Below, piece by piece: positions 11,622 through 59,571 of a DNA stretch of 64,000 bases (position 1 is the stretch's first letter; the number at the start of each line of letters is the position of its first letter). Location: the NCBI GenBank assembly GCA_964016885.1, contig OZ024750.1, positions 35,216,001 through 35,280,000 on the forward strand, written 5' to 3'. Position numbers and translations under genes: made by a program. Source of the stretch: Eledone cirrhosa. Its lineage: Eukaryota. The notes under the pieces are model-generated. The model searched no databases and was not told the DNA's origin. It saw only the letters and a list, made by a program, of their open reading frames with translations.

Positions 11622-11895
11622 CTATCCAGGAAGCTCCAACCGTTAAGGTTGTTTTTTTTCCGGGTATATCAATATTTATTTATAAAACAAATCTGTATTT
11701 TATCTGATGAAAGCGCACCATAATTTGCCTTGGTGGCCCTTGAAATATGTATAATAAAATAAATATGGTTTTATAAATCTAGTTTCCATTTATTAATATA
11801 TCGTGTATTTACTCCACTAATCTGTTGAGTGCTTTATATCAGTTATAAACATTTTTAAGCTTGTTGAATCCCAACAAATTAAATATAACCTCTGC
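11620..11895 (+). mobile_element. Penelope-like pLTR fragment containing a type I hammerhead (11696-11761)
   Basis: tattttat-CTGATGA-stem II-GAAA-tatgta-TA-ataaaata; flanking sequence is similar to the 3' end of the PLE at 43.8-44.0 kb. Confidence 0.7.
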
Positions 11896-13925: not shown

Positions 13926-14276
13926 GGAGACATATAGCTTAGTGGTTAGAGCATTGGCCTTGCAATCGAAAGGTTGTGAGTTCAATTCTCAGACCGAGTG
14001 ATGTGTTGTTTCCTTGAGCAAGACACTTTATTTCACATTGCTCCAGTTTACTCAGCTGTAGAAATGAGATGATAGGGACTGGGGTCCCTATCATTCCACT
14101 GCAAAGTGGTCGTGGAGGTGCCACGGCAAAAAAGCACCCAGCACTCACTGTAAATGAGGTTGGTGTTAGGAAGGGCATCCAGCTGTAGAAATCAAGCCTG
14201 AATCAGTTCCCGTCCCACCCTTGCAAGCAGGGAAAAGCGGACTTTAAATGAAATGATGATGTTGATGATGATGATA
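13926..14276 (+). mobile_element. Full-length tRNA-derived SINE with RTE-like tail
   Basis: A/B boxes (tagcttagtgg, gttcaattc), ccttgagcaagacacttta domain, 3' end shared with the RTE LINE; further copies at 21361-21700, 25712-26100 and 30165-30556 (minus strand). Confidence 0.88.
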
Positions 14277-18631: not shown

Positions 18632-18677
18632 TGGGTTAATGTCTTTACTTGTCACAAGCATTGGATATAAAGAAGTT

Positions 18678-18795
18678 GCTTACATCACCTAATTTACCAA
18701 GTGGTCACCCCGTCTAAGTACTAATTAGGCTCAAAGCTGCTTAATTTTGCTGTTTGAACAACAACCAGTATTTTCAATGTGGTATGGCCATAAAC
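18678..18795 (-). pseudogene. 5S rRNA pseudogene (full length, diverged)
   Basis: Minus strand reads gtttatggccataccacattgaaaatactggtt...ttaagcagctttgagcctaattagtacttagacggggtgaccacttgg...gatgtaagc, colinear with metazoan 5S rRNA including the box A and box C regions. Confidence 0.85.
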
Positions 18796-33506: not shown

Positions 33507-33936
33507 TGAAACAAAATGAAAACGAAATTTCATTTCTCACTCTTAGTATGGCACTTACTTAAATGTAAGTATGCATGTATACGTACATACATATATGTAT
33601 ACAGACGTACAGTAGCATGCACACATATATATATACATATATACATACATATGCATACAGGTACACATACATATATGCACGTATCAGTTTAGCGGCGCTT
33701 ATTATAACGTCGCTTTGTTCGTTTGTAAACAAACTGAACAGCCTGAATTTATGCCATACGGTGTTAAGGCAACCACGTCACCTTTTTGTTCAACACTGAC
33801 ACAGGAACGATGTACTAGTTTCAAGCTTGTTAGCTATCATCAGCACCGTTTACCCATCTGCCAGATAGTTGAACGTTCGAAAGTATATACTTTCCTTATG
33901 AAAATTAACGGCTGAGCAGCCTAATTTGCATATTGA
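33507..33936 (-). mobile_element. Solo near-monomer of the 466-bp hammerhead repeat (HHR at 33806-33850)
   Basis: Nearly identical to 51848-52275. Confidence 0.92.
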
Positions 33937-42210: not shown

Positions 42211-43800
<1,590 letters not shown>

Positions 43801-43930
43801 TAAAGTTATATTTAAAATTGTTGGGTTACAACTAGTAAATATTTATAACTGATATAAAAGCACTCGACAAATACTTGGAGTATATTTACAATATTAAATA
43901 AATGGAAAACTATATTTATAAAACCATATT

Positions 43931-43996
43931 TATTTCATTATATATATTTCGGGGATATCATATTAACAATATGCTATGCCTTCATCAGACAAAATA
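43931..43996 (-). ncRNA. Type I hammerhead in the PLE pLTR
   Basis: Reverse complement of 48669-48734. Confidence 0.7.
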
Positions 43997-45672
43997 CAAT
44001 ATAAACAGTTTTATAGATAAATATATTCGACATACCGTAATAAACATCAACTTCATTTGAAGAGGTTCACTCTAGCAGTGAAAATACAGAGAGAAAGAAA
44101 GAGAGAGAGAAAAGAGGGAAATAGGAAAGAAAGAAAGACAAAACGAAGAAAAGGAAGAAAAAGAAGAAAAAGAAAAAGAAGAAATGCATGGGACAAAATA
44201 GAGAGATGGAAAAATAGATAAAGCGAAGAGCTTCATGTAAAGAGACAGAAAGAGATATATATATATAGAGAGAGAGAGAGGAAGTAGAGATAGATACATA
44301 TATAAATATAGATATAGAAAAATTAGGTAGTGGGAGGTCATTTTGAGTAAGTGTATCAATGATGCATTTATTTATTTATTTATTTATTTATTTAGCTCAA
44401 GTATTAATGTAAGGGAGATATATAGAGAGATATAGAGAGATATAGAGAGAGAAAAAAAAAAAAAAAAATAGCCAGACATATTTGAGGCGTAGAGAACCCT
44501 ATGTTTTAATGTATTAGTATTTATAAAACTTACACTATATTGTAAATATCAGTATTCCTGAATGAAACAAGTATTCACAATGCGTGAAAATTCATTATCT
44601 TATGTTTAGTTTTTTAAAAAATTCATATGTCTATGTGAATCCAACTGATTCACTCCGCAAATTCAAAGTTACCGGAAAACATTCTCAATGTGGTATAAAA
44701 ATTTGAGCGTATTATTATTCTTGCGATTACTCTACAAGATTATCTATCAAGCAGAAATAGAGTGCAGATTTCAATATACTAATCGAAAATATATATTATA
44801 TTATAAGCAGAGATAACAATAATAATGATAATAAGTAAAAATATATAAAAATATAAAAATATAGAATAGAAAACTAAAAGAGAATATTACGAAAGAATAT
44901 TACATAATAAAAATATTGCATATTAAAAATACTACGTATTAAAAATATTACGTATTAAAACTTTACATATAAAAATATTAAAAATAAAAATTTACATATA
45001 AAAATATTAAAAAATATTAAAAATAAAAATAAAATAAAATAAAAAAAATAAAAATATTATAGAATACTACAATACTAAAAGAATAAAAATAAAAATAAAA
45101 ATAAAAATAAAAATAAAAATAAAAATAAAAATAAAAATAAAAATAAAAATAAAAATAAAAATAAAAATAAAAATAAAAATAAAAATAAAAATAAAAATAA
45201 AAATAAAAATAAAAATAAAAATAAAAATAAAAATAAAAATAAAAATAAAAATAAAAATAAAAATAAACCACAAAGAACAACCCTTCAAAGTTAATTGACA
45301 ATATATTGCCAAGTTCACTACAAGACAAAGCCAAAAATTATCTATCAAATCACATCTAGCAAGGAATATCGCAAAAAAAGATTATGATGTCCAATAATGT
45401 CTACATATGCTCCTATATTTAATATATAAGTTTATCAAGTGTAAGGTTAATTAAAAAAAAAAAAAAAATTTGGAGCATCGGCTTTTAGGGTAGCTTAATT
45501 TTTCATGAGGAATGTTTAGATAAAAATAAAAATAAAAATAAAAATAAAAATAAAAATAAAAAATAAATAAAATAAAATAAACAATAAAAAGAGTAAAAAG
45601 AGGGAATCAAAGATTTAGGAATCAAAAGATGTATCGGCTAGTTCTCATATAAATATAAATCAAACTAAATAT

Positions 45673-46915
45673 ACTACATTTTAAATTTAAATTTATATTT
45701 AAACGTTGAGTTTAATCTATGTTTGCAACAACTGAATAAATTTGTCCGTAGGTTAAGGGAATTTTTAGATTTTAGTATAAAGAATATCTCCTCTGCGCAG
45801 AGGTCACATGTCTCAGAGGATGAATTAAAAGGAATCCCTCTTGAGACTATATTCCAAGCCGTCGAATATCTAACGTTATCTAGCTTAAGTTGCCAGAGTA
45901 CACCTGATAGTGCCGTTGAAGATTTTTTATTTGGATCTGTGAAAGAATTCTTGTGGTTATTATAGCGAAGTTTAAATTCCGTCGATGTGGAACCGACGTA
46001 GTTAAAAGAATTAGAGTCAGTATTAACATTACAATTGTATACTATATTTTTAACTAAGCAGTTGTTATTTAACGGACATTTAGATCTATCTCTACAGTTA
46101 CATTTGTTAACTTGTATATTATTTATGCTATTATCAGTAGGTTTTAAGTTCCTATTATTTATTCTATTAATATTTTGTGCTAAATTTTTGGTGGATGAGT
46201 AGGTTAATTTAATTGTATGCCTATTGAAGATTGAGTGGTACCTATGTGTTCTAGGGAAGCGATTATCAAGAGCTTTGAAAAATAATTTAGCGATGTGGGT
46301 TTTAATGTTTAGTGAGAAAGGGGGGGCAAACCAAATTATGTTCCTAGTTCTATTTCTTTTTTGTCCTTTGGAATTATTGTAATGCTTTCTATTATAGTTG
46401 TTAATGTTGTTGCCGTCATTAAAAAGTTGTTACTTTGTTTAGTTTGTTTATCATTATCTATGTACACAATCTTATCAGCATACCCTGCCCTAGCTAGTGC
46501 ATCATTATAGTATTGGGCCTTTTCGTCAAAAATCTTTCTATTCGACGAGATCCTAGAGATACGTTTTTGGACTGAGTTTACTATAGTGTTTTTGACAGAT
46601 CTGGGGTGGTTAGAGTTAAAGTTGACATAGTTTAAGTTTTCATTCAACTTGTGAAAAGGATAGTGGAGACATGTGTTGAGATTTAATGTTATATCTAGGA
46701 AATTGACTATTCAATGGTTGTTCTCAATTTCTATTTTAAGGTTAAAGTAATTAAAAAATTTTGTAATTTGTTTACATTTTCTATTTAGTTCAGGGTTATT
46801 ATTATTAATAAGTAAAAGCATGTCATCCCTATATAAACCTCCGGTAGTACCAGGTATTTTCCTATGTAGCGAATTGATTAAAAATAAGCCCACAAGGTCA
46901 GTTACCTCTGCGCAG
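45673..46915 (-). pseudogene. Penelope-type RT C-terminal half plus GIY-YIG endonuclease (stop- and frameshift-interrupted)
   Basis: SAEVTDLVGLF...GLYRDD; SNHP; WFAPPFS; CNCRDRSKCPLNNNCL; IVYNC...YVGST..FKLRYNNH; CDLCAEE; LNLRTNLFSCCKH. Confidence 0.9.
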
Positions 46916-48668
46916 AGGAGATATTCTTTATACTAAAATCTAAAAATTCCCTTAACCTACGGACAAATTTATTCAGTTGTTGCAAACATAGATTAAACTC
47001 AACGTTTAAATATAAATTTAAATTTAAAATGTAGTATATTTAGTTTGATTTATATTTATATGAGAACTAGCCGATAAATCTTTTGATTCCTAAATCTTTG
47101 ATTCCCTCTTTTTACTCTTTTTATTGTTTATTTTATTTTATTTATTTTTTATTTTTATTTTTATTTTTATCTAAACATTCCTCATGAAAAATTAAGCTAC
47201 CCTAAAAGCCGATGCTCCAAATTTTTTTTTTTTTTTAATTAACCTTACACTTGATAAACTTATATATTAAATATAGGAGCATATGTAGACATTATTGGAC
47301 ATCATAATCTTTTTTTGCGATATTCCTTGCTAGATGTGATTTGATAGATAATTTTTGGCTTTGTCTTGTAGTGAACTTGGCAATATATTGTCAATTAACT
47401 TTGAAGGGTTGTTCTTTGTGGTTTATTTTTATTTTTATTTTCATTTTTATTTTTATTTTTATTTTTATTTTTATTTTTATTTTTATTTTTATTTTTATTT
47501 TTATTTTTATTTTTATTTTTATTTTTATTTTTATTTTTATTTTTATTTTTATTTTTATTTTTATTTTTATTTTTATTTTTATTCTTTTAGTATTGTAGTA
47601 TTCTATAATATTTTTATTTTTTTTATTTTATTTTATTTTTATTTTTAATATTTTTTAATATTTTTATATGTAAATTTTTATTTTTAATATTTTTATATGT
47701 AAAGTTTTAATACGTAATATTTTTAATACGTAGTATTTTTAATATGCAATATTTTTATTATGTAATATTCTTTCGTAATATTCTCTTTTAGTTTTCTATT
47801 CTATATTTCTATATTTTTATATATTTTTACTTATTATCATTATTATTGTTATCTCTGCTTATAATATAATATATATTTTCGATTAGTATATTGAAATCTG
47901 CTCTCTATTTCTGCTTGATAGATAATCTTGTAGAGTAATCGCAAGAATAATAATACGCTCAAATTTTTATACCACATTGAGAATGTTTTCCGGTAACTTT
48001 GAATTTGCGGAGTGAATCAGTTGGATTCACATAGACATATGAATTTTTTAAAAAACTAAACATAAGATAATGAATTTTCACGCATTGTGAATACTTGTTT
48101 CATTCAGGAATACTGATATTTACAATATAGTGTAAGTTTTATAAATACTAATACATTAAAACATAGGGTTCTCTACGCCTCAAATATGTCTGGCTATTTT
48201 TTTTTTATTTTTTCTCTCTCTATATCTCTCTATATCTCTCTATATATCTCCCTTACATTAATACTTGAGCTAAATAAATAAATAAATAAATAAATAAATG
48301 CATCATTGATACACTTACTCAAAATGACCTCCCACTACCTAATTTTTCTATATCTATATTTATATATGTATCTATCTCTACTTCCTCTCTCTCTCTATAT
48401 ATATATATATCTCTTTCTGTCTCTTTACATGAAGCTCTTCGCTTTATCTATTTTTCCATCTCTCTATTTTGTCCCATGCATTTCTTCTTTTTCTTTTTCT
48501 TCTTTTTCTTCCTTTTCTTCGTTTTGTCTTTCTTTCTTTCCTATTTCCCTCTTTTCTCTCTCTCTTTCTTTCTCTCTGTATTTTCACTGCTAGAGTGAAC
48601 CTCTTCAAATGAAGTTGATGTTTATTACGGTATGTCGAATATATTTATCTATAAAACTGTTTATATTG

Positions 48669-48734
48669 TATTTTGTCTGATGAAGGCATAGCATATTGTT
48701 AATATGATATCCCCGAAATATATATAATGAAATA
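48669..48734 (+). ncRNA. Type I hammerhead in the inverted PLE arm
   Basis: tattttgt-CTGATGA-stem II (catatt/aatatg)-GAAA-tatata-TA-atgaaata. Confidence 0.7.
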
Positions 48735-48772
48735 AATATGGTTTTATAAATATAGTTTTCCATTTATTTAAT

Positions 48773-48862
<90 letters not shown>

Positions 48863-48863
48863 C

Positions 48864-48924
<61 letters not shown>

Positions 48925-48925
48925 C

Positions 48926-48998
<73 letters not shown>

Positions 48999-48999
48999 T

Positions 49000-51772
49000 A
49001 TAACTTTGAATAACTTTGAAATGTTTTGGCCAGTATTGGCCCAGGCCATGTCTAACTTAATAGCACCACCTGGCGAGGTCTTTCAATTCAGGATTTGGGC
49101 ACCATGGCCCATTCGAGAAGAGAATTACTGTTTGCGGAGACATATCCGGGTGTGGGTGGTTTGTCCGGGATTACTTGGGGGAATTTGTCCAAAGACATCT
49201 TGAATTTTGTGTGGTCAGTTTCTGTTTTGACGTGTCCTGGTGTGATGTTGAAGAGAGCAGGGCCGATTGAGGTGAAATAATTGTGCCGTATTGTTGTTAT
49301 GAGTTGCGATTTAGATTTTTGAATGGGACGGATAGCACGGGGCCCAAGCCTTGGGTGTATCTTGAAGGTGATGCCAACATCATTTGGGCAGTGATGATGG
49401 AACATTTTCCACATCATGCAGATAATATAACGCTCACGGCGACGTTGGAGTGAGTAAAGTTTCAGGTTTTCTAATCAACCCCAGTAGTCAAGGTCTGACA
49501 TGCCATCTATCTTTTTCGTGATTGCCCTTTGAGGAGCTTCAAGTTTCATGATACTTTGTTTCGTGTGGGGAGACCACAGTGGACAACAGTATTCAAGGTG
49601 TGGTCGGGCAAAAGTAGAGAAGAGAAGGATAATGGTGCGGGAATCTCTCGACTGGAAGGTTCTGAGGATCCAGGAACACATTCTGCGGGCCATGTCAACT
49701 TTGCTGCTTATATGCGTGGTCCAGCTTATGTTGCTGTCCACGGTTACTCCCAAGTCTCTGATGTTGTTGGATGCCACGAGAGTTTCCCCGGAGGGAAGGG
49801 AGTACGGGAGTTTCAGAGCATCCTCTTTTCCAAAGTGGATCAGTTCGAATTTGTCTTCGTTCAGTAACATGTTGTTCTTTTCCGCCCATTGGGTAACAGC
49901 CAGTAGGTCTGACTGAAGGCTTATCCGGTCATCCACGCCATTGATGACCTTTTGGAGCTTGGAATCATCAGCGAAAATTTTAATGTTGCTGTGTTTGATG
50001 ATGTCAGTGATGTCATTAATATAGATGATGAAGAGAAGTGGGCCCAACACTGTGCCTTGTGGGACCCACTACTGACTTTGGCTGGGCTGGATTTGACTCC
50101 CTCAACTACAACATGTTGGGTTCTGTTTGACAGGAAGCTCTTGATCCACTGCAGCAGCTTTCCAGTGACACCAATATTGGACAGCTTTCTCAGTAGAATG
50201 TTATGATCAACCCTGTCAAAGGCCTTGCTGAAATCAAGGTAGATAACATCAGTGTTGGAACCCTCTCCCAAGGCTCTCAAAATGTCATCAAAGTGATGCA
50301 GTAGCTGCGTCAGGCAATCTCTTCCATTACGGAATCCATGGTGGTTGGAGTTCAGCATATTGTTACTCTCAAGGAAGTGGGTCATTCGCGATCTCACCAC
50401 TCTCTCAAATACCTTAATGATATGAGAGGTGAGTGAGATTGGACGGTAATTCACGGCAAGGGATTTGTTTCCCTTTTTGAAAACTGGGACAACAGACTGG
50501 GATAGAAGGTTTTCTGGCACATATCCAGCATCCAGTGAGTTCCGCCACAGATTGGCAAGAGGAGATGCAAGTTGGTGTTGACACGCCTTCAAGACACAAG
50601 CAGGGAACCTATCGGGACCTACTGCTGAATTATGCTTGATTTCCTTTATTGCCGCCAAGACATCAGGGGCGCCAAACGTTATGTCCGATAAGGTGTAATG
50701 GGGAGTAACATCGCCGATACAGCCCAGATCGGCCATATCAGGATTGCTGAAAACAGAGCAGTATTGTTTCTGCAGTATCTCACCCATGGTTTTAGCATTG
50801 TCTTGAAGAGTGCCATTTTCATCAATTAGAGGGCCAACAGTAGAGCCAGTGATTTTGTGTTTTTTTGCAAATGAAAAGAACACTTTGGGATTGAGTTTGA
50901 TCTTCTCAATGGCCCAGGCCTCCTCAGCTCTTCTCTGATTGTTGATGAGGGACATTATGTTGTTTTGGAGGTTATGTTTTTTAATCTCTAGTGATGAAAT
51001 GGCAGTTAAGTTGATGTGTTGCTGCTGACAGTATTTCAGCTTGTTGATTTTTTTGTTCGTTCTCTTAATTTTTCTGATGAGCGTTTTTCTATTTCTAGGG
51101 ATTCTGCTCTTAGATTTGTTTATAGTTCTTAATGGGGTGTGTTTAGCACATATGTTTGTAACAGTGTCCACAAATGTCTGCCAGGACTTTTTGATGTTAG
51201 TGGGTGTATGAGTGTGCGTGAAGGACCAGTCGACATGTGCAAGATCATGACTGATCGCTTCCCAGTTTGCATTGTGGAAATCCATAGCGTCAAACGGATG
51301 GACAGGAGAGAAGACATTGGGTTTGTATATTGGACGGTGGAATCTCAGATCACAGAGAACCATTTCATGATCAGAGAGTAGAGTTTTCTCCACTGCAATA
51401 TTGTGGATATTGTCAGTGTGATTGCTGAAAATTAAGTCTAGGACGTTTTTGTGGCACCTCGTTGGTTCGAGCACCAGTTGGGATAGGAAGAAATCATCCA
51501 TGAAGTCAAGAAGCGATTCCACAGCTTCCCTGTCAGAGGTTGAGGCAGAAGAACCTGGTGGCAGGCTGTTTGTGGACCAGTCAACTCCGGGGAGGTTGAA
51601 GTCCCCCATCATTAAGATGTTGTCAGGGTGACACTCTTGGATGAAACACTTTATGCTGTTGAGGCATTCCTTGAAGCATGGTACAGGCGTTTGGGGTGGC
51701 CTATAGAGCCCAACTACTAATAGGTTGTTGGTTTGACTGAATACAGTGACTGCCTCACAGTATCCATTAGTG
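49000..51772 (-). mobile_element. CR1-group LINE, 5' truncated within the APE domain; ORF2 with one frameshift and one stop
   Basis: YRPP, MGDFN, LDLIF, SDH (APE); NYRPISLTS, YLDFSKAFD, FADDSK, RPHLEYCCPLWSP (RT); frameshift near 50070; in-frame TGA at 49475; tail (ttcaaagtta)x2. Confidence 0.93.
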
Positions 51773-51799
51773 AATATATATATATATATATTCACTAAT

Positions 51800-51847
<48 letters not shown>

Positions 51848-52992
51848 TGAAACAAAATGAAAACGAAATTTCATTTCTCACTCTTAGTATGGCACTTACT
51901 TAAATGTAAGTATGCATGTATACGTACATACATATATGTATACAGACGTACAGTAGCATGCACATATATATATATATATACATATATACATACATATGCA
52001 TACAGGTACACATACATATATGCACGTATCAGTTTAGCGGCGCTAACGTCGCTTTGTTCGTTTGTAAACAAACTGAACAGCCTGAATTTATGCCATACAG
52101 TGTTAAGGCAACCACGTCACCTTTTTGTTCAACACTGACACAGGAACGATGTACTAGTTTCAAGCTTGTTAGCTATCATCAGCACCGTTTACCCATCTGC
52201 CAGATAGTTGAACGTTCGAAAGTATATACTTTCCTTATGAAAATTAACGGCTGAGCAGCCTAATTTGCATATTGAGTGAGTTAAATCGGTCAGGCATACC
52301 GAAAACGATAAATTGAAACAAAATGAAAACGAAATTTCATTTCTCACTCTTAGTATGGCACTTACTTAAATGTAAGTATGCATGTATACGTACATACATA
52401 TATGTATACAGACGTACAGTAGCATGCACATATATATATATATATACATATATACATACATATGCATACAGGTACACACACATATATGCACGTATCAGTT
52501 TAGCGGCGCTAACGTCGCTTTGTTCGTTTGTAAACAAACTGAACAGCCTGAATTTATGCCATACGGTGTTAAGGCAACCACGTCACCTTTTTGTTCAACA
52601 CTGACACACCGATTTAACTCACTCAATATGCAAATTAGGCTGCTCAGCCGTTAATTTTCATAAGGAAAGTATATACTTTCGAACGTTCAACTATCTGGCA
52701 GATGGGTAAACGGTGCTGATGATAGCTAACAAGCTTGAAACTAGTACATCGTTCCTGTGTCAGTGTTGAACAAAAAGGTGATGTGGTTGCCTTAACACCG
52801 TATGGCATAAATTCAGGCTGTTCAGTTTGTTTACAAACGAACAAAGCGACGTTAGCGCCGCTAAACTGATACGTGCATATATGTATGTGTACCTGTATGC
52901 ATATGTATGTATATATGTATATATATATATATATGTGCATGCTACTGTACGTCTGTATACATATATGTATGTACGTATACATGCATACTTAC

Positions 52993-53077
<85 letters not shown>

Positions 53078-53823
53078 TATGCATGTATACGTACATACAT
53101 ATATGTATACAGACGTACAGTAGCATGCACATATATATATATATATACATATATACATACATATGCATACAGGTACACATACATATATGCACGTATCAGT
53201 TTAGCGGCGCTAACGTCGCTTTGTTCGTTTGTAAACAAACTGAACAGCCTGAATTTATGCCATACGGTGTTAAGGCAACCACGTCACCTTTTTGTTCAAC
53301 ACTGACACAGGAACGATGTACTAGTTTCAAGCTTGTTAGCTATCATCAGCACCGTTTACCCATCTGCCAGATAGTTGAACGTTCGAAAGTATATACTTTC
53401 CTTATGAAAATTAACGGCTGAGCAGCCTAATTTGCATATTGAGTGAGTTAAATCGGTCAGGCATACCGAAAACGATAAATTGAAACAAAATGAAAACGAA
53501 ATTTCATTTCTCACTCTTAGTATGGCACTTACTTAAATGTAAGTATGCATGTATACGTACATACATATATGTATACAGACGTTAGCGCCGCTAAACTGAT
53601 ACGTGCATATATGTATGTGTACCTGTATGCATATGTATGTATATATGTATATATATATATATATGTGCATGCTACTGTACGTCTGTATACATATATGTAT
53701 GTACGTATACATGCATACTTACATTTAAGTAAGTGCCATACTAAGAGTGAGAAATGAAATTTCGTTTTCATTTTGTTTCAATTTATCGTTTTCGGTATGC
53801 CTGACCGATTTAACTCACTCAAT

Positions 53824-53871
53824 ATGCAAATTAGGCTGCTCAGCCGTTAATTTTCATAAGGAAAGTATATA
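53824..53871 (+). promoter_or_regulatory. Candidate snRNA-type internal promoter (octamer ATGCAAAT, PSE-like block, TATA-like motif), one per unit
   Basis: ATGCAAAT at 53824-53831 and TAATTTTCATAAGGAAAGTATATA at 53848-53871; conserved in the sister family at 42932-42978. Confidence 0.5.
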
Positions 53872-53904
53872 CTTTCGAACGTTCAACTATCTGGCAGATG
53901 GGTA

Positions 53905-53949
53905 AACGGTGCTGATGATAGCTAACAAGCTTGAAACTAGTACATCGTT
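53905..53949 (+). ncRNA. Type I hammerhead ribozyme (representative copy), predicted cleavage after GUA at 53942
   Basis: 7-bp stem I, complete CUGAUGA/GAAA core, 3-bp stem II, palindromic ACUAGU stem III. Confidence 0.9.
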
Positions 53950-56900
53950 CCTGTGTCAGTGTTGAACAAAAAGGTGACGTGGTTGCCTTAACACCGTATG
54001 GCATAAATTCAGGCTGTTCAGTTTGTTTACAAACGAACAAAGCGACGTTAGCGCCGCTAAACTGATACGTGCATATATGTATGTGTACCTGTATGCATAT
54101 GTATGTATATATGTATATATATATATATATGTGCATGCTACTGTACGTCTGTATACATATATGTATGTACGTATACATGCATACTTACATTTAAGTAAGT
54201 GCCATACTAAGAGTGAGAAATGAAATTTCGTTTTCATTTTGTTTCAATTTATCGTTTTCGGTATGCCTGACCGATTTAACTCACTCAATATGCAAATTAG
54301 GCTGCTCAGCCGTTAATTTTCATAAGGAAAGTATATACTTTCGAACGTTCAACTATCTGGCAGATGGGTAAACGGTGCTGATGATAGCTAACAAGCTTGA
54401 AACTAGTACATCGTTCCTGTGTCAGTGTTGAACAAAAAGGTGACGTGGTTGCCTTAACACCGTATGGCATAAATTCAGGCTGTTCAGTTTGTTTACAAAC
54501 GAACAAAGCGACGTTAGCGCCGCTAAACTGATACGTGCATATATGTATGTGTACCTGTATGCATATGTATGTATATATGTATATATATATATGTATGTGC
54601 ATGCTACTGTACGTCTGTATACATATATGTATGTACGTATACATGCATACTTACATTTAAGTAAGTGCCATACTAAGAGTGAGAAATGAAATTTCGTTTT
54701 CATTTTGTTTCAATTTATCGTTTTCGGCATGCCTGACCGATTTAACTCACTCAATATGCAAATTAGGCTGCTCAGCCGTTAATTTTCATAAGGAAAGTAT
54801 ATACTTTCGAACGTTCAACTATCTGGCAGATGGGTAAACGGTGCTGATGATAGCTAACAAGCTTGAAACTAGTACATCGTTCCTGTGTCAGTGTTGAACA
54901 AAAAGGTGACGTGGTTGCCTTAACACCGTATGGCATAAATTCAGGCTGTTCAGTTTGTTTACAAACGAACAAAGCGACGTTAGCGCCGCTAAACTGATAC
55001 GTGCATATATGTATGTGTACCTGTATGCATATGTATGTATATATGTATATATATATATATATGTGCATGCTACTGTACGTCTGTATACATATATGTATGT
55101 ACGTATACATGCATACTTACATTTAAGTAAGTGCCATACTAAGAGTGAGAAATGAAATTTCGTTTTCATTTTGTTTCAATTTATCGTTTTCGGTATGCCT
55201 GACCGATTTAACTCACTCAATATGCAAATTAGGCTGCTCAGCCGTTAATTTTCATAAGGAAAGTATATACTTTCGAACGTTCAACTATCTGGCAGATGGG
55301 TAAACGGTGCTGATGATAGCTAACAAGCTTGAAACTAGTACATCGTTCCTGTGTCAGTGTTGAACAAAAAGGTGACGTGGTTGCCTTAACACCGTATGGC
55401 ATAAATTCAGGCTGTTCAGTTTGTTTACAAACGAACAAAGCGACGTTAGCGCCGCTAAACTGATACGTGCATATATGTATGTGTACCTGTATGCATATGT
55501 ATGTATATATGTATATATATATATATATGTGCATGCTACTGTACGTCTGTATACATATATGTATGTACGTATACATGCATACTTACATTTAAGTAAGTGC
55601 CATACTAAGAGTGAGAAATGAAATTTCGTTTTCATTTTGTTTCAATTTATCGTTTTCGGTATGCCTGACCGATTTAACTCACTCAATATGCAAATTAGGC
55701 TGCTCAGCCGTTAATTTTCATAAGGAAAGTATATACTTTCGAACGTTCAACTATCTGGCAGATGGGTAAACGGTGCTGATGATAGCTAACAAGCTTGAAA
55801 CTAGTACATCGTTCCTGTGTCAGTGTTGAACAAAAAGGTGACGTGGTTGCCTTAACACCGTATGGCATAAATTCAGGCTGTTCAGTTTGTTTACAAACGA
55901 ACAAAGCGACGTTAGCGCCGCTAAACTGATACGTGCATATATGTATGTGTACCTGTATGCATATGTATGTATATATGTATATATATATATATATGTGCAT
56001 GCTACTGTACGTCTGTATACATATATGTATGTACGTATACATGCATACTTACATTTAAGTAAGTGCCATACTAAGAGTGAGAAATGAAATTTCGTTTTCA
56101 TTTTGTTTCAATTTATCGTTTTCGGTATGCCTGACCGATTTAACTCACTCAATATGCAAATTAGGCTGCTCAGCCGTTAATTTTCATAAGGAAAGTATAT
56201 ACTTTCGAACGTTCAACTATCTGGCAGATGGGTAAACGGTGCTGATGATAGCTAACAAGCTTGAAACTAGTACATCGTTCCTGTGTCAGTGTTGAACAAA
56301 AAGGTGACGTGGTTGCCTTAACACCGTATGGCATAAATTCAGGCTGTTCAGTTTGTTTACAAACGAACAAAGCGACGTTAGCGCCGCTAAACTGATACGT
56401 GCATATATGTATGTGTACCTGTATGCATATGTATGTATATATGTATATATATATATATATGTGCATGCTACTGTACGTCTGTATACATATATGTATGTAC
56501 GTATACATGCATACTTACATTTAAGTAAGTGCCATACTAAGAGTGAGAAATGAAATTTCGTTTTCATTTTGTTTCAATTTATCGTTTTCGGTATGCCTGA
56601 CCGATTTAACTCACTCAATATGCAAATTAGGCTGCTCAGCCGTTAATTTTCATAAGGAAAGTATATACTTTCGAACGTTCAACTATCTGGCAGATGGGTA
56701 AACGGTGCTGATGATAGCTAACAAGCTTGAAACTAGTACATCGTTCCTGTGTCAGTGTTGAACAAAAAGGTGACGTGGTTGCCTTAACACCGTATGGCAT
56801 AAATTCAGGCTGTTCAGTTTGTTTACAAACGAACAAAGCGACGTTAGCGCCGCTAAACTGATACGTGCATATATGTATGTGTACCTGTATGCATATGTAT

Positions 56901-59571
56901 GTATATATGTATATATATATATATATGTGCATGCTACTGTACGTCTGTATACATATATGTATGTACGTATACATGCATACTTACATTTAAGTAAGTGCCA
57001 TACTAAGAGTGAGAAATGAAATTTCGTTTTCATTTTGTTTCAATTTATCGTTTTCGGTATGCCTGACCGATTTAACTCACTCAATATGCAAATTAGGCTG
57101 CTCAGCCGTTAATTTTCATAAGGAAAGTATATACTTTCGAACGTTCAACTATCTGGCAGATGGGTAAACGGTGCTGATGATAGCTAACAAGCTTGAAACT
57201 AGTACATCGTTCCTGTGTCAGTGTTGAACAAAAAGGTGACGTGGTTGCCTTAACACCGTATGGCATAAATTCAGGCTGTTCAGTTTGTTTACAAACGAAC
57301 AAAGCGACGTTAGCGCCGCTAAACTGATACGTGCATATATGTATGTGTACCTGTATGCATATGTATGTATATATGTATATATATATATATATGTGCATGC
57401 TACTGTACGTCTGTATACATATATGTATGTACGTATACATGCATACTTACATTTAAGTAAGTGCCATACTAAGAGTGAGAAATGAAATTTCGTTTTCATT
57501 TTGTTTCAATTTATCGTTTTCGGTATGCCTGACCGATTTAACTCACTCAATATGCAAATTAGGCTGCTCAGCCGTTAATTTTCATAAGGAAAGTATATAC
57601 TTTCGAACGTTCAACTATCTGGCAGATGGGTAAACGGTGCTGATGATAGCTAACAAGCTTGAAACTAGTACATCGTTCCTGTGTCAGTGTTGAACAAAAA
57701 GGTGACGTGGTTGCCTTAACACCGTATGGCATAAATTCAGGCTGTTCAGTTTGTTTACAAACGAACAAAGCGACGTTAGCGCCGCTAAACTGATACGTGC
57801 ATATATGTATGTGTACCTGTATGCATATGTATGTATATATGTATATATATATATATATGTGCATGCTACTGTACGTCTGTATACATATATGTATGTACGT
57901 ATACATGCATACTTACATTTAAGTAAGTGCCATACTAAGAGTGAGAAATGAAATTTCGTTTTCATTTTGTTTCAATTTATCGTTTTCGGTATGCCTGACC
58001 GATTTAACTCACTCAATATGCAAATTAGGCTGCTCAGCCGTTAATTTTCATAAGGAAAGTATATACTTTCGAACGTTCAACTATCTGGCAGATGGGTAAA
58101 CGGTGCTGATGATAGCTAACAAGCTTGAAACTAGTACATCGTTCCTGTGTCAGTGTTGAACAAAAAGGTGACGTGGTTGCCTTAACACCGTATGGCATAA
58201 ATTCAGGCTGTTCAGTTTGTTTACAAACGAACAAAGCGACGTTAGCGCCGCTAAACTGATACGTGCATATATGTATGTGTACCTGTATGCATATGTATGT
58301 ATATATGTATATATATATATATATGTGCATGCTACTGTACGTCTGTATACATATATGTATGTACGTATACATGCATACTTACATTTAAGTAAGTGCCATA
58401 CTAAGAGTGAGAAATGAAATTTCGTTTTCATTTTGTTTCAATTTATCGTTTTCGGTATGCCTGACCGATTTAACTCACTCAATATGCAAATTAGGCTGCT
58501 CAGCCGTTAATTTTCATAAGGAAAGTATATACTTTCGAACGTTCAACTATCTGGCAGATGGGTAAACGGTGCTGATGATAGCTAACAAGCTTGAAACTAG
58601 TACATCGTTCCTGTGTCAGTGTTGAACAAAAAGGTGACGTGGTTGCCTTAACACCGTATGGCATAAATTCAGGCTGTTCAGTTTGTTTACAAACGAACAA
58701 AGCGACGTTAGCGCCGCTAAACTGATACGTGCATATATGTATGTGTACCTGTATGCATATGTATGTATATATGTATATATATATATATATGTGCATGCTA
58801 CTGTACGTCTGTATACATATATGTATGTACGTATACATGCATACTTACATTTAAGTAAGTGCCATACTAAGAGTGAGAAATGAAATTTCGTTTTCATTTT
58901 GTTTCAATTTATCGTTTTCGGTATGCCTGACCGATTTAACTCACTCAATATGCAAATTAGGCTGCTCAGCCGTTAATTTTCATAAGGAAAGTATATACTT
59001 TCGAACGTTCAACTATCTGGCAGATGGGTAAACGGTGCTGATGATAGCTAACAAGCTTGAAACTAGTACATCGTTCCTGTGTCAGTGTTGAACAAAAAGG
59101 TGACGTGGTTGCCTTAACACCGTATGGCATAAATTCAGGCTGTTCAGTTTGTTTACAAACGAACAAAGCGACGTTAGCGCCGCTAAACTGATACGTGCAT
59201 ATATGTATGTGTACCTGTATGCATATGTATGTATATATGTATATATATATATATATGTGCATGCTACTGTACGTCTGTATACATATATGTATGTACGTAT
59301 ACATGCATACTTACATTTAAGTAAGTGCCATACTAAGAGTGAGAAATGAAATTTCGTTTTCATTTTGTTTCAATTTATCGTTTTCGGTATGCCTGACCGA
59401 TTTAACTCACTCAATATGCAAATTAGGCTGCTCAGCCGTTAATTTTCATAAGGAAAGTATATACTTTCGAACGTTCAACTATCTGGCAGATGGGTAAACG
59501 GTGCTGATGATAGCTAACAAGCTTGAAACTAGTACATCGTTCCTGTATATATATATATATAGGTGTGTGGC

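Follow-up and report, generated by a model that had tools for sequence, protein, structure and literature searches.

A putative internal snRNA-type promoter with RNA polymerase II spacing in hammerhead ribozyme repeats of Eledone cirrhosa

Hammerhead ribozyme repeats in the genome of Eledone cirrhosa carry a module in which an octamer, a YCA core 16 nt on and a TATA-like box 41–43 nt on keep a fixed spacing across several hammerhead families. We propose, with a probability of roughly 0.6, that this block acts as a promoter of the snRNA type within the repeat, used by RNA polymerase II (Pol II), and that each repeat likely drives its own transcription. When the Pol II snRNA-type promoter and a Pol III variant of it are taken together, a promoter function appears probable. 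An internal promoter in a hammerhead repeat is known from newt satellite 2, and what we describe is probably the same arrangement in a known class of elements, with the PSE reassigned. The original prediction of an snRNA-type promoter inside the repeat unit agrees with the host's own genes and with five further element groups; its choice of TAATTTTCATA as the PSE is not supported by this comparison.

Hammerhead repeats in the window

The window, by which we mean the whole 64,000-nt stretch analysed, contains a tandem array of family A (53578..59546, + strand; 466 bp × 12.8, 99% matches) with (TA)n at its end. The hammerhead core is present in 13/13 array units, spaced 466 nt. The unit has a GC content of about 0.36 and is short, dispersed, high-copy and without LTRs; that of family B is likewise 466 bp long. 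An inverted family A copy adjoins the 5′ end of the array (53069..53577, − strand; octamer at 53437, (TA)n end, boundaries approximate). A second family A insertion (51842..52997) consists of an inverted tract (51842–52608) and a direct tract (52608–52997), each with a (TA)n end, and a further tract lies at 33507..33936 (− strand; octamer at 33931, boundaries approximate). Family B is represented by an insertion at 42264..43293 (left boundary approximate), made up of an inverted and a direct tract, each with a (TA)n end. The inverted tract has a hammerhead at 42598 and no octamer; the direct tract (42673–43293) has a hammerhead core at 43032 and predicted cleavage after GUU near 43065.

Hammerheads were identified by motif and fold, Rfam at its gathering threshold giving no hammerhead call. 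That of family A (53881..53967, + strand) is of type I, with an extended stem I, the core CTGATGA at 53912, a U-U at the base of stem II resembling that of axolotl HHR_Amex2, a short palindromic stem III and predicted cleavage after GUA at 53942. All positions marked + or − on the repeats take the first A of ATGCAAAT as zero; on this scale the core is at +88 in A and +100 in B, and the predicted cleavage falls after +118 and +130, respectively. A search of the 3.0-Gb genome for the octamer followed by AATTTTCATA and CTGANGA gave 16,912 matches (8,676 + 8,236), against 0 for the reversed control.

The repeats agree with the descriptions of non-LTR retrozymes in PMC7229834 and bioRxiv 10.64898/2026.07.22.740005. 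They share with the metazoan members of this class a type I hammerhead per tandem unit, low GC, no need for coding, thousands of copies and a highly paired predicted circle. Their units of 420–466 bp exceed the range of about 170–400 nt in the passages cited from Cervera and de la Pena 2020 (PMC7229834), and fall within the 51–972 bp given in those cited from Li, Clavereau and Pollet 2026 (10.64898/2026.07.22.740005).

Several other hammerhead-like families are without the octamer, and in the window such motifs with no octamer upstream lie at 11703+, 22908−, 23090+, 40481−, 41096+, 48676+, 4118− and 59944+, each position being counted on the strand shown. Two (TA)n tracts of the window enclose a 2.2-kb inverted repeat (43629–45807 and 46901–49002, arms 95% identical), which is probably a further inverted insertion of Penelope type. 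A GC-richer minus-strand stretch (49000–51775), by eye LINE endonuclease/reverse transcriptase-like, ends at the (TA)n of a family A insertion. A degenerate 5S rRNA copy (18677–18795, − strand) and a tRNA-like head, possibly of a SINE (13935–13992, + strand), were seen as well.

The conserved block and its parts

The A and B monomers, the latter from locus L062, share 57% identity in a global alignment of 517 columns. Of the 30-column windows printed in 10-column steps, the one that opens with the octamer scores highest (0.80), ahead of the hammerhead (0.77) and an AT-rich stretch at −158 to −119 (also 0.77), in agreement with the earlier view that this is the best-conserved block outside the hammerhead. 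TATGCAAATTAG is the sole 12-mer common to the two monomers, and the block is identical in 13/13 array copies of family A. As described earlier, ATGCAAAT lies at 53824 and 42932 and TAATTTTCATA at 53848 and 42955, with spacings of 24 and 23 nt. The ACTCAC of the described block is replaced by ACCCAC in subfamily A2 and in the L062 array of family B. A distance of 25–35 nt from the TATA-like motif to the ribozyme stem applies to the inner stem segment in A (25 nt), with 24 nt in B, but not to the outermost predicted stem of A, which begins at 53881, 15 nt after the start of TATA.

TATGCAAATTAG (53823..53834, + strand) contains the octamer and is a putative POU (Oct) site. The same word stands upstream of a host U6 gene (contig C9) and of both tRNA-Sec loci; it agrees in 12/12 letters with the host Pol III word, reaches the maximal score (18.4) with a matrix of seven host Pol III loci and is the monomer's best site on either strand. 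The putative PSE core, TCAGC (53840..53844, + strand), lies at octamer+16 and resembles the YCAGY at −55 to −58 of host U1, U2, U4 and U5. It ranks first of 401 offsets, with a score (3.9) under the host range of 5.0–12.8. TATATA (53866..53871, + strand) follows at octamer+42, 26 nt past the core, within a 16-bp palindrome (53861–53876). The family B block (42931..42978, + strand) comprises the 12-mer (42931–42942), a CCACT core at 42948, the inverted arm (42955–42965), CATATA (42973–42978) and a predicted start at about 43004; its core is the weakest of seven groups (score −0.3, rank 21 of 401).

Going by host geometry only, transcription would start at +71 to +74, which in family A is 53895..53898 (+ strand), with 53896, 30 nt past TATA, as the best guess. 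A pyrimidine-A stands at +72 in both window families (53896 and 43004). Position 53896 is 47 nt ahead of the family A cleavage site, inside the 5′ arm of the ribozyme stem.

The PSE core is likely TCAGC at 53840. The word TAATTTTCATA, to which this role had been given, differs at one position from the reverse complement of the octamer arm and occurs in 0/49 copies of groups C, J, K and L; its region is at background identity (0.33) across the divergent groups A, B, C, K and L. The 11-mer or its A2 variant is present in 60/66 copies of A, A2 and B (four copies unassigned, one in fact J-type). Similarity to it has no fixed place among 29 host promoters: 7–9/11 letters agree with a T-rich tract near −57 to −62 of host Pol III promoters in four loci, and comparable matches are scattered over AT-rich host Pol II promoters. 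The inverted one-mismatch octamer word (53847..53858, − strand), present in groups A, A2 and B only, forms the 3′ arm of a predicted RNA hairpin and is possibly a weaker second POU site. With TCAGC as the core, the PSE–TATA spacing once called atypical becomes the host Pol II spacing, so that the hint of Pol III becomes unlikely. A minus-strand promoter directed by the inverted arm was considered and rejected: octamer-word scores are 9.9 (A) and 14.2 (B), and by eye no TATA lies 46–48 nt beyond.

snRNA-type promoters of the host

The host genes compared were U6, U6atac, MRP, RNase P, tRNA-Sec, U1, U2, U3, U4, U5, U11, U12 and U4atac, with positions given relative to the Rfam start rather than a mapped start. 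U6 and U6atac copies that lack a promoter were treated as retrocopies and left out, and matrices were built from 7 Pol III and 14 Pol II promoters. The comparison with U1, U2 and U6 upstream regions, which had been put forward as a check of the promoter claim, found the octamer word in Pol III loci and YCAG in U1/U2/U4/U5. In 7/8 host Pol III loci (three U6, U6atac, MRP and two tRNA-Sec, RNase P being the one without) TATG(C/G)(A/T)AAT(T/G)AG stands at −76 to −79, with TATA 46–48 nt on. All 14 distinct U1/U2/U4/U5 promoters have YCAG at −55 to −58 and a TATA-like box 22–31 nt on (median 25), at about −30.

Among host Pol II genes an octamer at the place it takes in the elements occurs in U3 only; one U1/U2/U4/U5 promoter has an octamer-like word at −109. 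Host U3 combines a degenerate octamer at −73/−74, the best site between −300 and −10 in 3/3 copies scored, with TCA at −56/−57 and TATA at −31/−32. Octamer-like word, TCA core and TATA are therefore found at 0, +17 and +42 in U3 (L261–L266), against 0, +16 and +42 in family A. U3 differs in that its octamer is degenerate and accompanied by an AATTAA word and a distal TTATCTCCCTT word, whereas the octamer of the element is perfect and the element is contained in its own repeat unit. Applied to held-out host genes, the Pol II model placed the expected site first or second in U12, U3 and one U11 copy; U12 fits the model and that U11 copy fits it weakly, and the other U11 copy and U4atac were missed.

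Two further words of the host genes are by eye not evident in the elements, namely AATTAA near −88 and the distal word TTACCTCCCTT. Words like TTACCTCCCTT at about −250 to −290 are common to the U6, U1, U2, U3, U11, U12 and RNase P promoters (L001–L003, L018–L039, L258–L266) and are a candidate distal sequence element. The RNase P gene (L087) has a hybrid promoter, in which the octamer is absent, a TCAGT core lies 32 nt ahead of TATA and a T run follows downstream. In a tandem array of U6 genes (G000:C19:31.78–31.84 Mb; L007, L008, L010–L013) some units have an insertion of ~190 nt between TATA and gene, which shifts the promoter to −270.

The module in divergent element groups

We compared 119 distinct copies, all selected for ATGCAAAT, which are related and amount to 5–7 independent cases. 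Subfamily A2 (420 bp) was recognised via a diverged copy in a GIY-YIG locus and family C, with an octamer at −91/−94 relative to the hammerhead, by a hammerhead scan, so that both groups were first found without an octamer requirement; the +16 core was part of neither search pattern. Groups J, K and L came from a pattern excluding the main A, A2 and B types, which gave 2,783 matches against 7 in the control. From this list 30 loci were examined, together with 20 picked by eye among its first 100 rows, and 3 of the first 30 had the octamer and core pattern and no module. The distance from octamer to hammerhead ranges from 80 to 108 across groups.

YCA is found at octamer+16 in 107/119 copies and a TATA-like hexamer at +39 to +45 in 113/119. 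Core and TATA are 25–27 nt apart, and octamer and TATA 41–43 nt apart, in 7/7 groups. Across A, B, C, K and L, identity at +16 to +18 is 0.77, compared with 0.30 and 0.28 beside it; over +42 to +47 it is 0.40, a figure that does not allow for 1-nt shifts. With the model of 14 host Pol II promoters, +16 is the top-ranking offset of 401 for groups A, A2, C and J; in the three groups whose core score is near zero it comes 6th (L), 10th (K) and 21st (B). Within +8 to +40 the peak of the model falls at +16 in 104/119 copies and in 4/36 unrelated octamers, for a core of only 3–5 letters.

RNA structure of the block

One alternative is that the block is kept as RNA structure, its two hairpins stabilising the circular RNA or being read by a Penelope-like reverse transcriptase, with transcription by read-through from outside promoters. 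The predicted folds lend this some weight. In the circular monomer 67% of A and of B is paired, and A and B have three predicted hairpins in common (z −3.2 and −6.4): one joins the octamer to the inverted arm, and a second, with different letters in the two families, contains the TATA. When segments of 230 nt were folded locally, with K represented by two copies and every other group by one, the octamer came out paired in 5/7 groups, at 0.85 and 0.86 in the window families and 0.71–0.87 in A2, K and L. It is, however, mostly unpaired in C (0.36) and J (0.29), and its partner changes sides, lying downstream in A, A2, B and K and upstream in L, and being mostly absent in C and J. Moreover, A2 keeps TATATA at +42 without a hairpin (pairing 0.10). 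On these pairing predictions we reject the hairpin as the sole explanation for C, J and A2, and structure alone leaves the 12/12 match to the host word and the U3-like spacing unexplained; we therefore regard this alternative as unlikely. The hairpins probably do form in the RNA, and selection may act on them as well, yet they would leave the fixed words unexplained.

Spacing and the choice of polymerase

The promoter reading raises the question whether the block could be a type 3 Pol III promoter, like that of U6, with its spacing shortened; we consider this distinctly unlikely. In its favour, the 12-mer is characteristic of host Pol III loci (7/8) and among Pol II genes recurs only in U3, in degenerate form; the block has a TATA box, family A has no T run above T4, and human RPPH1 is used by both polymerases in the passages cited from PMC3499247. 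Against this, the octamer–TATA distance of 41–43 nt is 4–6 nt too short for Pol III, for which it is 46–48 nt in all 7 host loci, and fits Pol II; in 0/119 copies does the TATA-like hexamer occur only at +46 to +49. When the TATA part is scored, Pol II spacing comes out above Pol III spacing in 7/7 groups and the reverse is true of 5/5 host Pol III loci. A TATA-like box is also present in the host Pol II genes, and two T5 runs in B and a T6 in A2 argue against Pol III read-through. In Drosophila, Pol II and Pol III spacing differs by 4 bp. For insects, the cited passages of PMC1761439 support a fixed PSE–TATA spacing and polymerase-specific PSE letters; they give no figure for a spacing difference between Pol II and Pol III.

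Scored for a 3′ box, the unit reaches at best 2.4 (A) and 7.5 (B), compared with 8.8–20.3 in 13 host genes, and is for this reason not an snRNA gene; the absence fits with read-through.

Least likely of all is that the octamer serves as a POU-factor enhancer, or the block as an ordinary TATA promoter from a Penelope-like pseudo-LTR, with no SNAPc and a +16 core due to shared ancestry. Three points speak for it: a short core that is weak in B, K and L, a probable common ancestry of all groups, and the start site that Penelope pLTRs contain in the passages cited from PMC8557442. Against it, identity at +16 to +18 stands out from neighbouring columns at background, and inspection of 35 GIY-YIG loci, few among the 10,596 candidates, showed no autonomous element with the block.

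Insertions and a proposed mechanism

In the insertions a direct tract has an inverted partial copy at its 5′ end. Their 3′ ends fall into two clusters, −34 to −57 and −97 to −108, and their 5′ ends are scattered; among loci chosen for holding the block, (TA)n is found at the ends of 29/38 A tracts and 19/23 B tracts. A microsatellite target, partial tandems and an inverted 5′ copy are all as expected of a Penelope-mobilised element. Penelope-like insertions are described, in the passages cited from Craig et al. 2021 (PMC8557442), as partial tandems with an inverted 5′-truncated copy, staggered 3′ ends, (TA)n targets and a 30–40 bp tail. The first four of these features are found here too; the repeat differs in being non-coding and in a stagger of ~60–70 nt, against the 30–40 bp tail (PMC8557442). 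GIY-YIG loci are abundant (150 scored among 10,596 candidates). An autonomous partner sharing terminal sequence was not found in 25 + 10 of them, a small sample of those candidates, and a reverse-transcriptase motif check confirmed no Penelope-type RT in the frames that it covered.

From these observations we infer the following scheme. A POU factor would sit on the octamer, SNAPc on the neighbouring core, and TBP would set the start ~72 nt past the octamer (53896). As the unit lacks a 3′ box, transcription would continue through the following repeats, and successive hammerheads would release unit-length RNA by double self-cleavage. A host ligase would then circularise this RNA; retrozyme monomers are circularised by RtcB in vitro in the passages cited from PMC7229834. 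Finally, a Penelope-like reverse transcriptase would copy the circle into (TA)n sites. Since the 3′ ends lie just upstream of the block, a tract that carries the block must have been copied beyond the cleavage site, with a circle or an uncut multimer as the template. Such a template would allow the retroelement to retain a promoter that lies upstream of its own start.

No insertion 5′ end lies at +72 (0/38 in A, 0/23 in B), and none of these tracts begins exactly at the cleavage site; should the template be circular, the scattered 5′ ends are uninformative about the start site. Junctions to the A or B cleavage product were not seen in 13 U6 and 10 U6atac copies read (14 of each fetched). In one of the 13 (L014; G000:C10:48072680–48072786, minus strand) the 3′ end of a U6 retrocopy and the predicted cleavage site of another hammerhead family, D, meet with no offset. 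The junction suggests that U6 was ligated to the 5′-OH product of the ribozyme and then retroposed, and would, if so, be fossil evidence of cleavage in vivo for family D. Several other U6/U6atac retrocopies (L193–L204, L205–L212) have their 3′ ends fused to the same few repeat 3′ ends, similar to the U6–LINE chimeras of mammals. One U6atac copy directly adjoins an inverted family C element (L074, upstream of the copy).

Discussion

The newt satellite 2 promoter of Coats, Zhang and Epstein (1994) reportedly consists of an octamer and a PSE, with a start some 40–50 nt ahead of the cleavage site. In the passages cited from PMC2220036, satellite 2 is a tandem hammerhead repeat whose internal snRNA-type promoter is used by Pol II. 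The repeats described here resemble it in being hammerhead tandem repeats with a putative internal snRNA-type promoter; they belong to another phylum, and the newt promoter is a tested one, whereas theirs is predicted. They differ further in that their words match the promoters of their own host, in the TATA-like box and in the occurrence of the module in at least five divergent families. The hammerhead satellite of Schistosoma (Ferbeyre et al. 1998, as cited in passages of PMC2220036) likewise has an internal promoter, but one for Pol III, and the spacing here points to Pol II.

As the concept goes back to the newt work of 1994, the surprise is limited. In the cited passages of PMC7229834 a retrozyme promoter is not described and the word is used for T7 only; those of 10.64898/2026.07.22.740005 nowhere mention promoter, octamer, snRNA or Pol III, and those of PMC6155905 do not mention 'promoter'. 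Among openly available papers, we found none on invertebrate retrozyme promoters beyond Schistosoma or on mollusc snRNA promoters. The module would supply exact predicted positions for the start and three elements in an invertebrate, and the host comparison also outlines the host's own snRNA promoter code.

If the module works, the newt arrangement is no amphibian oddity, and thousands of additional POU/SNAPc sites lie across the genome. More speculatively, and at present this is a tentative idea that we would sooner doubt than adopt, animal retrozymes in general may be self-transcribing parasites of the snRNA machinery, with a gene-external SNAPc promoter that tracks the promoter code of each host lineage. 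As part of the same tentative idea, the 3′ box might have been dropped for Pol II read-through and the promoter kept by circular permutation, and the form taken here might be an octamer of Pol III strength joined to Pol II, U3-like spacing. Animal retrozymes are strongly expressed in all tissues tested in the passages cited from PMC7229834. The general reading, if true, would account for this high, tissue-wide expression of retrozymes from newts to molluscs.
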